Shown here in pieces: positions 53,361-53,601 of a stretch of DNA of 64,000 nucleotides. Under the pieces are notes generated by a model that did not search any database, had not been told where the DNA came from, and was given only the letters and a program-made list of their open reading frames with translations. The stretch lies in assembly GCF_054482525.1 (NCBI RefSeq), contig NZ_CM137006.1; one strand, given 5' to 3'. The number at the start of each line of letters is the position of its first letter. Positions within the stretch are counted from its first letter, which is position 1. A program made the translations under genes and the position numbers.

Positions 53361-53446
53361 GACGACTCCCTTTGATGAACCGATATTTTTGCTGCTTCAC
53401 AATGCTTCGCTAAGCGTAATCATCGTTACGCTCTTGTTATAAATGG

Positions 53447-53465
53447 GAATGGTAATCATTATTTT
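53447..53465. promoter_or_regulatory. Fur box in yncE/yncD divergent promoter region
   Basis: GAATGGTAATCATTATTTT; core AATGGTAATCATTAT matches Fur consensus AATGATAATCATTAT at 14/15 positions. Confidence 0.55.
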
Positions 53466-53601
53466 CTCAAATGTGGAGCATTTCTTGCCGTTACGACTAC
53501 AATTTTCTCAATTACTTAACGTATTGTGCCGTTTCGTTTTCCATAAATTTACAATTTTATTACCATGACGGCGTTTTCCCATACTTAACCTGGCTTTTTT
53601 C

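Follow-up and report, generated by a model that had tools for sequence, protein, structure and literature searches.

The yncE promoter of Escherichia coli K-12 is repressed by Fur, and Seo 2014 is reportedly among the works that deal with it. Binding of Fur upstream of yncE has been described (PMC4676285, PMC7157518), and the direct Fur regulon of strains MG1655 and CFT073 includes the gene, with a ChIP peak in CFT073 as well (PMC7157518). ChIP-exo located Fur at 1521238-1521250 in MG1655 (PMC10164565) and at 1524928-1524940 in W3110 (PMC10164565 supplement), both peaks being confined to iron-replete cells (PMC10164565). In fur mutants, yncE is derepressed 9- to 280-fold (log2FC of 3.1 in MG1655 and 8.1 in W3110; PMC10164565) and YncE protein is overproduced (PMC5120174), and iron limitation raises the yncE transcript 16-fold (PMC8896160). 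The original yncE Fur box is credited to McHugh 2003 by a later paper (PMC8896160), from which we take the attribution, and according to a 2026 Reg-Seq supplement the box is missing from the RegulonDB annotation. The divergent neighbour of yncE, yncD, is now named pqqU and encodes a high-affinity pyrroloquinoline quinone (PQQ) importer (PMC12124388; bioRxiv 10.1101/2022.06.07.495086). A yncD pseudogene has been reported in CFT073 (PMC7157518 supplement).

The locus considered here lies in a 64,000-nucleotide stretch of E. coli DNA, referred to below as the window, in which positions 52200-55800 are 100% identical to strain PCN033 and share 95-99% identity with almost every one of some 5400 further complete genomes. 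It is the same locus as the Fur-repressed yncE promoter of K-12 and CFT073 (Beauchene 2015, PMC4676285; Banerjee 2020, PMC7157518; Gao 2023, PMC10164565) and differs from it in nothing of substance, being that of another strain with three substitutions on the pqqU side. These substitutions (53583, 53558, and 53536) are the only ones that separate the intergenic region from that of K-12 MG1655, the MG1655 and W3110 intergenic sequences are identical to each other, and the 170 bp nearest yncE, with the Fur box, are identical to K-12. Because only three bases differ and none of them is near the box, the K-12 experiments transfer to the window. The box and its control of yncE are already documented, yncE is a core member of the Fur regulon, and the Fur box itself is nothing new, as the window repeats the K-12 sequence. 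The gene identities proposed in an earlier note, which was made from the sequence alone, were right: Pfam assigns a YncE-like beta-propeller to one gene and the plug and barrel of a TonB-dependent receptor to the other (Table 1).

Table 1 Features of the yncE-pqqU region, in window coordinates
Feature	Position	Strand	Description
yncE CDS	52299-53360	-	Periplasmic 7-bladed beta-propeller (RefSeq, Pfam PF21783)
RyhB-complementary leader block	53391-53410	-	GCGAAGCAUUGUGAAGCAGC, opposite RyhB nt 41-59, immediately 3' of the hairpin
GAAGCAUUGUG	within 53408-53398		Inside the RyhB-complementary block; predicted counterpart of RyhB nt 47-57
7-bp stem-loop, yncE 5' leader	53413-53432	-	AGCGTAA-CGATGA-TTACGCT (RNAalifold)
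Fur box, yncE promoter operator	53445-53463	.	GGGAATGGTAATCATTATT; core 53448-53462 at 14/15
TAATCATTA	53453-53461		Within the Fur box
Candidate yncE -10	53449-53454	-	TACCAT, inside the Fur box; putative
Candidate yncE -35	53472-53477	-	TCCACA, inside the near-invariant CTCCAC block 53473-53478; putative
Marbox-like block	53513-53532	-	ACGGCACAATACGTTAAGTA; one mismatch to AYnGCACnnWnnRYYAAAYn
Candidate pqqU core promoter	53538-53566	+	TTTCCA 53538-53543, 17-bp spacer, TACCAT 53561-53566; putative
pqqU (=yncD) CDS	53602-55704	+	TonB-dependent PQQ importer (RefSeq, Pfam Plug + TonB_dep_Rec barrel)

The earlier note had placed a near-consensus Fur box in the interval 53361-53601, which is the whole 241-bp gap between yncE and yncD/pqqU. 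The string it quoted, GAATGGTAATCATTATTTT, is found exactly at the 53447-53465 it claimed, and its count of 14 matches over 15 core positions holds for consensus positions 4-18 (AATGATAATCATTAT). Compared with the full 19-bp Fur consensus GATAATGATAATCATTATC, which is an array of GATAAT-like hexamers, GGGAATGGTAATCATTATT matches at 15/19, the best match in the 64-kb window in our own mismatch scan; a scan with the 19-mer at no more than 3 mismatches returned no match, since the box carries 4. When the core AATGATAATCATTAT was allowed up to 2 mismatches, the box was the sole match in the window, with 0.18 expected, and dinucleotide shuffles yielded 0.16 matches of at least 15/19 per 64-kb window. 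Taken by itself, without conservation or ChIP-exo, the sequence match is suggestive and not decisive. It is conservation, together with the published ChIP-exo peaks, that makes this a functional Fur site and bears out the claim of a near-consensus box. The W3110 peak projects onto 53441-53453, at the yncE-proximal edge of the box, and the MG1655 peak would have the same offset from yncE if its coordinates are those of an older genome version. In the MG1655 sheet of that study (PMC10164565), the gene columns appear to be displaced by one row from about peak P39.

Elsewhere in the window, Fur-like matches of 14/19 are present at 19363-19381, 40530-40548, and 50597-50615. The last of these (AATAATGGTGATAACTATC) lies 72-90 bp upstream of the annotated start of ansP (50687), for which the log2FC in fur mutants is -1.39 in MG1655 and -0.07 in W3110. 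The upstream region of yncE also contains a 10-bp direct repeat, TTGAGAAAAT, that occurs twice on the minus strand, 41 bp apart (53461-53470 and 53502-53511). It is absent as a conserved feature outside Escherichia and is probably due to chance.

Conservation of the box was assessed with one genome per species, a scan that covered 80 YncE-encoding loci of Enterobacteriaceae, the upstream regions of 78 of which were examined. In most of the 78, the best match to the Fur consensus is the orthologous box, which scores 13-16/19 and precedes the yncE start codon by about 80-88 bp. When 24 Enterobacteriaceae species were aligned, no other block was as well conserved as the box, whose mean column identity is 0.94 (0.96 in the core) compared with 0.70 for the intergenic region and 0.50 for the adjacent spacer. 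Several genera have extra in-phase GATAAT-like hexamers, for example GATAATGAGAATAGTAATC, and additional in-phase hexamers are typical of Fur operators. Of 5426 complete E. coli genomes, 5407 contain the 45-bp segment that surrounds the box, and 5013 carry the 30-bp segment 53440-53469 in essentially identical form; three sampled variants have changes at 53432, 53465, or 53466 only, all outside the box. Part of this conservation could reflect the -10 hexamer embedded in the box, and not contacts with Fur alone. The yncE leader differs in loci L030, L036, and L038 (Pseudescherichia and relatives) and in L008 (C. amalonaticus S646), among which the box distance is short or the RyhB-complementary block is missing. 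In L030, L036, and L038, the best Fur-like site is just 33-43 bp from the assumed yncE start codon. These loci have either a misplaced start codon or a remodelled leader.

Natural losses of pqqU indicate to which gene the box belongs. Nine Citrobacter loci (L009, L010, L012, L014, L017, L019, L020, L024, and L078) have yncE without pqqU beside it, the deletion having removed either pqqU alone or pqqU and mcbR, and the upstream region of yncE is abutted by mcbR in three of these loci and by curA in five. In one E. albertii locus (L005), pqqU is reduced to a remnant of 24 codons. All ten of these loci keep the Fur box, CTCCAC block, leader hairpin, and RyhB block at their usual distance from yncE, while the pqqU-less Citrobacter loci no longer show homology to the half of the intergenic region nearest pqqU. 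The block containing the candidate pqqU promoter was lost along with pqqU there. The box is thus not restricted to loci that have both genes, and since it is retained where pqqU has been deleted, it belongs to yncE.

The earlier note had proposed iron-responsive control of both genes. For yncE this is backed by published binding, by fur-mutant expression, and by protein data; for yncD/pqqU it largely fails, the gene having a log2FC of 0.12 in MG1655 and being up in two of nine strains. The corresponding alternative is that one Fur box acts as a shared bidirectional operator that represses both divergent promoters, so that yncE and yncD/pqqU are co-regulated by iron in the manner of fepA-fes or znuA-znuCB. 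We regard this as unlikely. It is consistent with the position of the box in a common intergenic region and with the derepression of pqqU in the fur mutants of W3110 (log2FC 2.95, from about 4.7 to 32 units) and strain 042 (log2FC 2.02), the two of nine strains in which the Fur regulon includes pqqU (PMC10164565). A second iron-replete peak of MG1655 also falls inside the 5' end of yncD once the apparent row shift is corrected, and yncD co-purified with yncE in MS2-RyhB pull-downs, which the authors blame on head-to-head overlapping UTRs (PMC7154689). However, pqqU is unchanged in the MG1655 fur mutant (p = 0.39; PMC10164565) despite an intergenic sequence identical to that of W3110, and YncD/PqqU has been described as lending no support to iron uptake and as responding neither to Fur nor to iron limitation (PMC7193533, bioRxiv 10.1101/2022.06.07.495086, PMC12124388). 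The box also stays beside yncE after pqqU loss, and it does not reach both core promoters as predicted here, its centre lying about 119 bp from the putative pqqU transcription start site (TSS). No second Fur-like site of at least 11/19 was found near the candidate pqqU promoter in the mismatch scan of the window. As the neighbour is a PQQ importer, the presence of a Fur box in the shared intergenic region should not be taken to imply control of both genes.

The row-shift-corrected MG1655 peak within pqqU (1520944-1520980) corresponds to about 53711-53747 in the window, or pqqU codons 37-49, and is separated by about 11 bp from a weak Fur-like match (13/19) at 53682-53700.

With box ownership by yncE as the preferred reading, the strain difference in pqqU expression still calls for comment. 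It is not encoded in cis, because the intergenic sequences of MG1655 and W3110 are identical. The wild-type level of yncE is about 300 units in MG1655 and about 18 in W3110 (PMC10164565), and this higher level suggests weaker occupancy by Fur in the MG1655 experiment. A minority possibility is that damping of pqqU requires very high occupancy by Fur. Fur may thus have a weak, condition-dependent effect on pqqU, and a statement that the box serves yncE only may be too strict. It is conceivable, if doubtful, that very high occupancy could lower pqqU 4- to 8-fold from about 120 bp away, in which case the operator would not be strictly one-sided. Possible routes are spreading of Fur along the AT-rich spacer, coupling of the back-to-back promoters, and overlap of the yncE leader with a distal pqqU start. 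If this were true, PQQ scavenging would be conditionally tied to iron status, and the published statements that the gene is not Fur-regulated would be reconciled with the W3110 and 042 data.

How Fur might act on yncE depends on the layout of the promoter. In the model that we prefer, TCCACA and TACCAT on the yncE strand, separated by 17 bp, would form the -35 and -10 elements, which would place the yncE TSS near 53442 and the box over the -10 element and part of the spacer. The -10 candidate reads TACTAT or TATTAT in other genera, with the A at position 2 and the T at position 6 kept. This model is favoured because a start near 53442 leaves the covarying leader hairpin fully transcribed. The alternative -10 candidate TATAAC (53441-53436), with a low identity of 0.67 and no T at position 6, would have transcription begin inside the covarying stem and was retained merely as an alternative model; there the box would cover the -35 region and the spacer, so that both models predict overlap with the core promoter, the classical layout for repression by occlusion. 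Overlap with the -10 or the -35 element is in either case a model built on a putative TSS. For yncEp, RegulonDB gives a weak MarA site at -41.5, for which Reg-Seq found no MarA footprint (bioRxiv 10.1101/2025.05.13.653802 supplement). It was rejected as an anchor for the TSS, as degenerate marbox-like sequences fit both promoter models.

On the opposite strand, the candidate pqqU hexamers TTTCCA and TACCAT each have a column identity of 0.94 among the 24 species, and the pqqU TSS may lie near 53573. A sigma-70-like plus-strand combination of TTCACA, 16 bp, and AATCAT (53396-53423) was considered as a distal, box-crossing pqqU promoter and rejected: it is one match against 0.8 expected, and its -10 becomes AGTCAT in about half of the genera, so that the key A at position 2 is gone. 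Most pqqU-keeping loci have a marbox-like site with no more than 2 mismatches in this position, and the pqqU-less Citrobacter loci have lost it; from its sequence and distribution the block ACGGCACAATACGTTAAGTA may serve pqqU rather than yncE regulation. The two genes share the candidate -10 region ATTACCAT, as a perfect 8-bp inverted repeat, ATGGTAAT / ATTACCAT, spans 53449-53456 and 53559-53566. A looser inverted repeat of 14 bp is formed by 53436-53449 and 53576-53589.

The presence of a -10-like hexamer in the box raises the alternative that the block owes its conservation mainly to a role as yncE core promoter (-10 and spacer), with an incidental resemblance to a Fur site and with iron control exerted elsewhere or indirectly, for example through RyhB. 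The conserved TACCAT/TACTAT inside the box would fit such an explanation, as would the approximately 3-fold part of yncE induction that RyhB provides (PMC8896160). We consider it very improbable, however, since the conserved positions span TAATGATTA, which is the Fur core and not the -10 element, the Fur ChIP-exo peaks lie on the box and only in iron-replete cells, about 60% of the induction of yncE by iron limitation does not require RyhB (PMC8896160), and the additional in-phase GATAAT-like hexamers recur in several genera. That the box is a functionless AT-rich chance match is scarcely credible and already refuted in practice by the conservation and ChIP-exo data, for although at least one 15/19 match arises in 13% of shuffled 64-kb windows, only about 0.0006 are expected within 241 bp, the box is near-invariant at a fixed position across Enterobacteriaceae, and Fur occupancy and regulation have been published.

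Downstream of the box, the yncE leader contains a small stem-loop (Table 1) in which all 7 of 7 pairs show compensatory changes, as predicted independently by RNAalifold. Across 50 distinct Enterobacteriaceae sequences, 93% of the cells are paired, double-change cells number 78 compared with 26 in shuffles, and the covariation score is 0.714 compared with no more than 0.22 for slid controls. G-U pairs far outnumber A-C mismatches, which points to a structure in yncE-sense RNA. A plus-strand "terminator-like" hairpin was therefore rejected as this leader hairpin read on the wrong strand. The E. coli polymorphism at 53432 converts the outermost A-U pair to G-U and keeps the pairing. The loop motif CNAUGAY is conserved (0.85); the loop AUG was rejected as the start of an upstream mini-ORF, as this codon becomes AGG, AAG, or ACG in several genera. 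An Rfam search of 53250-53700 returned no family. When folded as a whole, the leader was not unusually stable (z = 0.46), and its ribosome-binding site was not clearly sequestered in a structure.

Activation of yncE by RyhB has been found by Ribo-seq and confirmed with a translational fusion (PMC4666370), and has been published in PMC4676285 as well. In RIL-seq, yncE is a major partner of RyhB, which accounts for about 3-fold of the 16-fold induction (PMC8896160), while CopraRNA ranks yncE 834th as a RyhB target (PMC7154689). The leader block next to the hairpin is probably the site of this activation, as judged from its complementarity and conservation. Pairing was scored by a windowed scan against the RyhB core; RNAduplex with full-length RyhB and the whole leader was abandoned, as it gave long, meaningless duplexes. 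The core duplex in E. coli has an energy of -20.1 kcal/mol, which is unremarkable alone, being equalled by 6.75% of random 101-mers. In about 70 of 75 orthologous leaders, the best RyhB duplex is located at the homologous position, and the energy averaged over all 75 is -22 kcal/mol. In 24 representative leaders, where the duplex has a fixed position, the real core gave a mean of -23.0 kcal/mol compared with -13.1 +/- 1.6 for 60 shuffled cores, none of which equalled it.

Taken together, it is very likely that the yncE promoter has its Fur operator at 53445-53463, with RyhB probably adding to yncE induction, and that pqqU is essentially independent of Fur. The match, its conservation, and its linkage to yncE come from the comparisons made here, and Fur occupancy and Fur-dependent expression from the K-12 literature; the promoter hexamers, start sites, occlusion mechanism, and RyhB pairing site are predictions. 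When iron is sufficient, Fe2+-Fur on the box would overlap the yncE core promoter and block RNA polymerase. When iron is scarce, Fur would depart and yncE would be strongly transcribed. Iron scarcity would also derepress the small RNA RyhB, which probably pairs with the leader at 53410-53391, just 3' of the hairpin, and would increase both the mRNA and the translation of yncE by about another 3-fold. The pqqU gene would have its own conserved promoter about 130 bp away and be essentially independent of Fur, or at most weakly affected in some strains or conditions.

Beyond the box itself, the analysis corrects the implied role of the TonB-dependent neighbour, which, as PqqU, imports PQQ rather than iron. 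It also provides a comparative map, which may help specialists, in which conserved blocks are assigned to single genes by means of natural pqqU deletions. The hairpin and the RyhB-complementary block offer a testable pairing site in a target that RyhB activates and to which prediction tools give a low rank. As YncE is an antigen for vaccines and diagnostics, it is of some practical use to understand what governs its expression at iron-poor sites in the host.

The regulation proposed for yncE resembles that of cirA and shiA, which are activated by RyhB and of which cirA is also repressed by Fur. In yncE, likewise, one iron signal would act at two levels. Unlike for cirA and shiA, no pairing site for yncE is reported in the literature surveyed, and the leader segment 53410-53391 is put forward as a candidate from its complementarity. 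In its layout, the locus is similar to fepA-fes, fepB-entC, and fepDGC-entS, where a Fur box lies in a short divergent intergenic region and one of the genes encodes a TonB-dependent receptor. Both sides of those pairs are iron-regulated, with ChIP-exo peaks listed for both transcription units, whereas here the receptor on the pqqU side carries PQQ, has its own candidate promoter, and is not derepressed in MG1655. In function, PqqU resembles BtuB, a TonB-dependent importer that lies outside the Fur regulon, in that both import a scarce organic cofactor, and expression of pqqU is reported to be independent of Fur (PMC7193533). Unlike btuB, however, pqqU adjoins a Fur operator and shows a modest dependence on Fur in two of nine strains.
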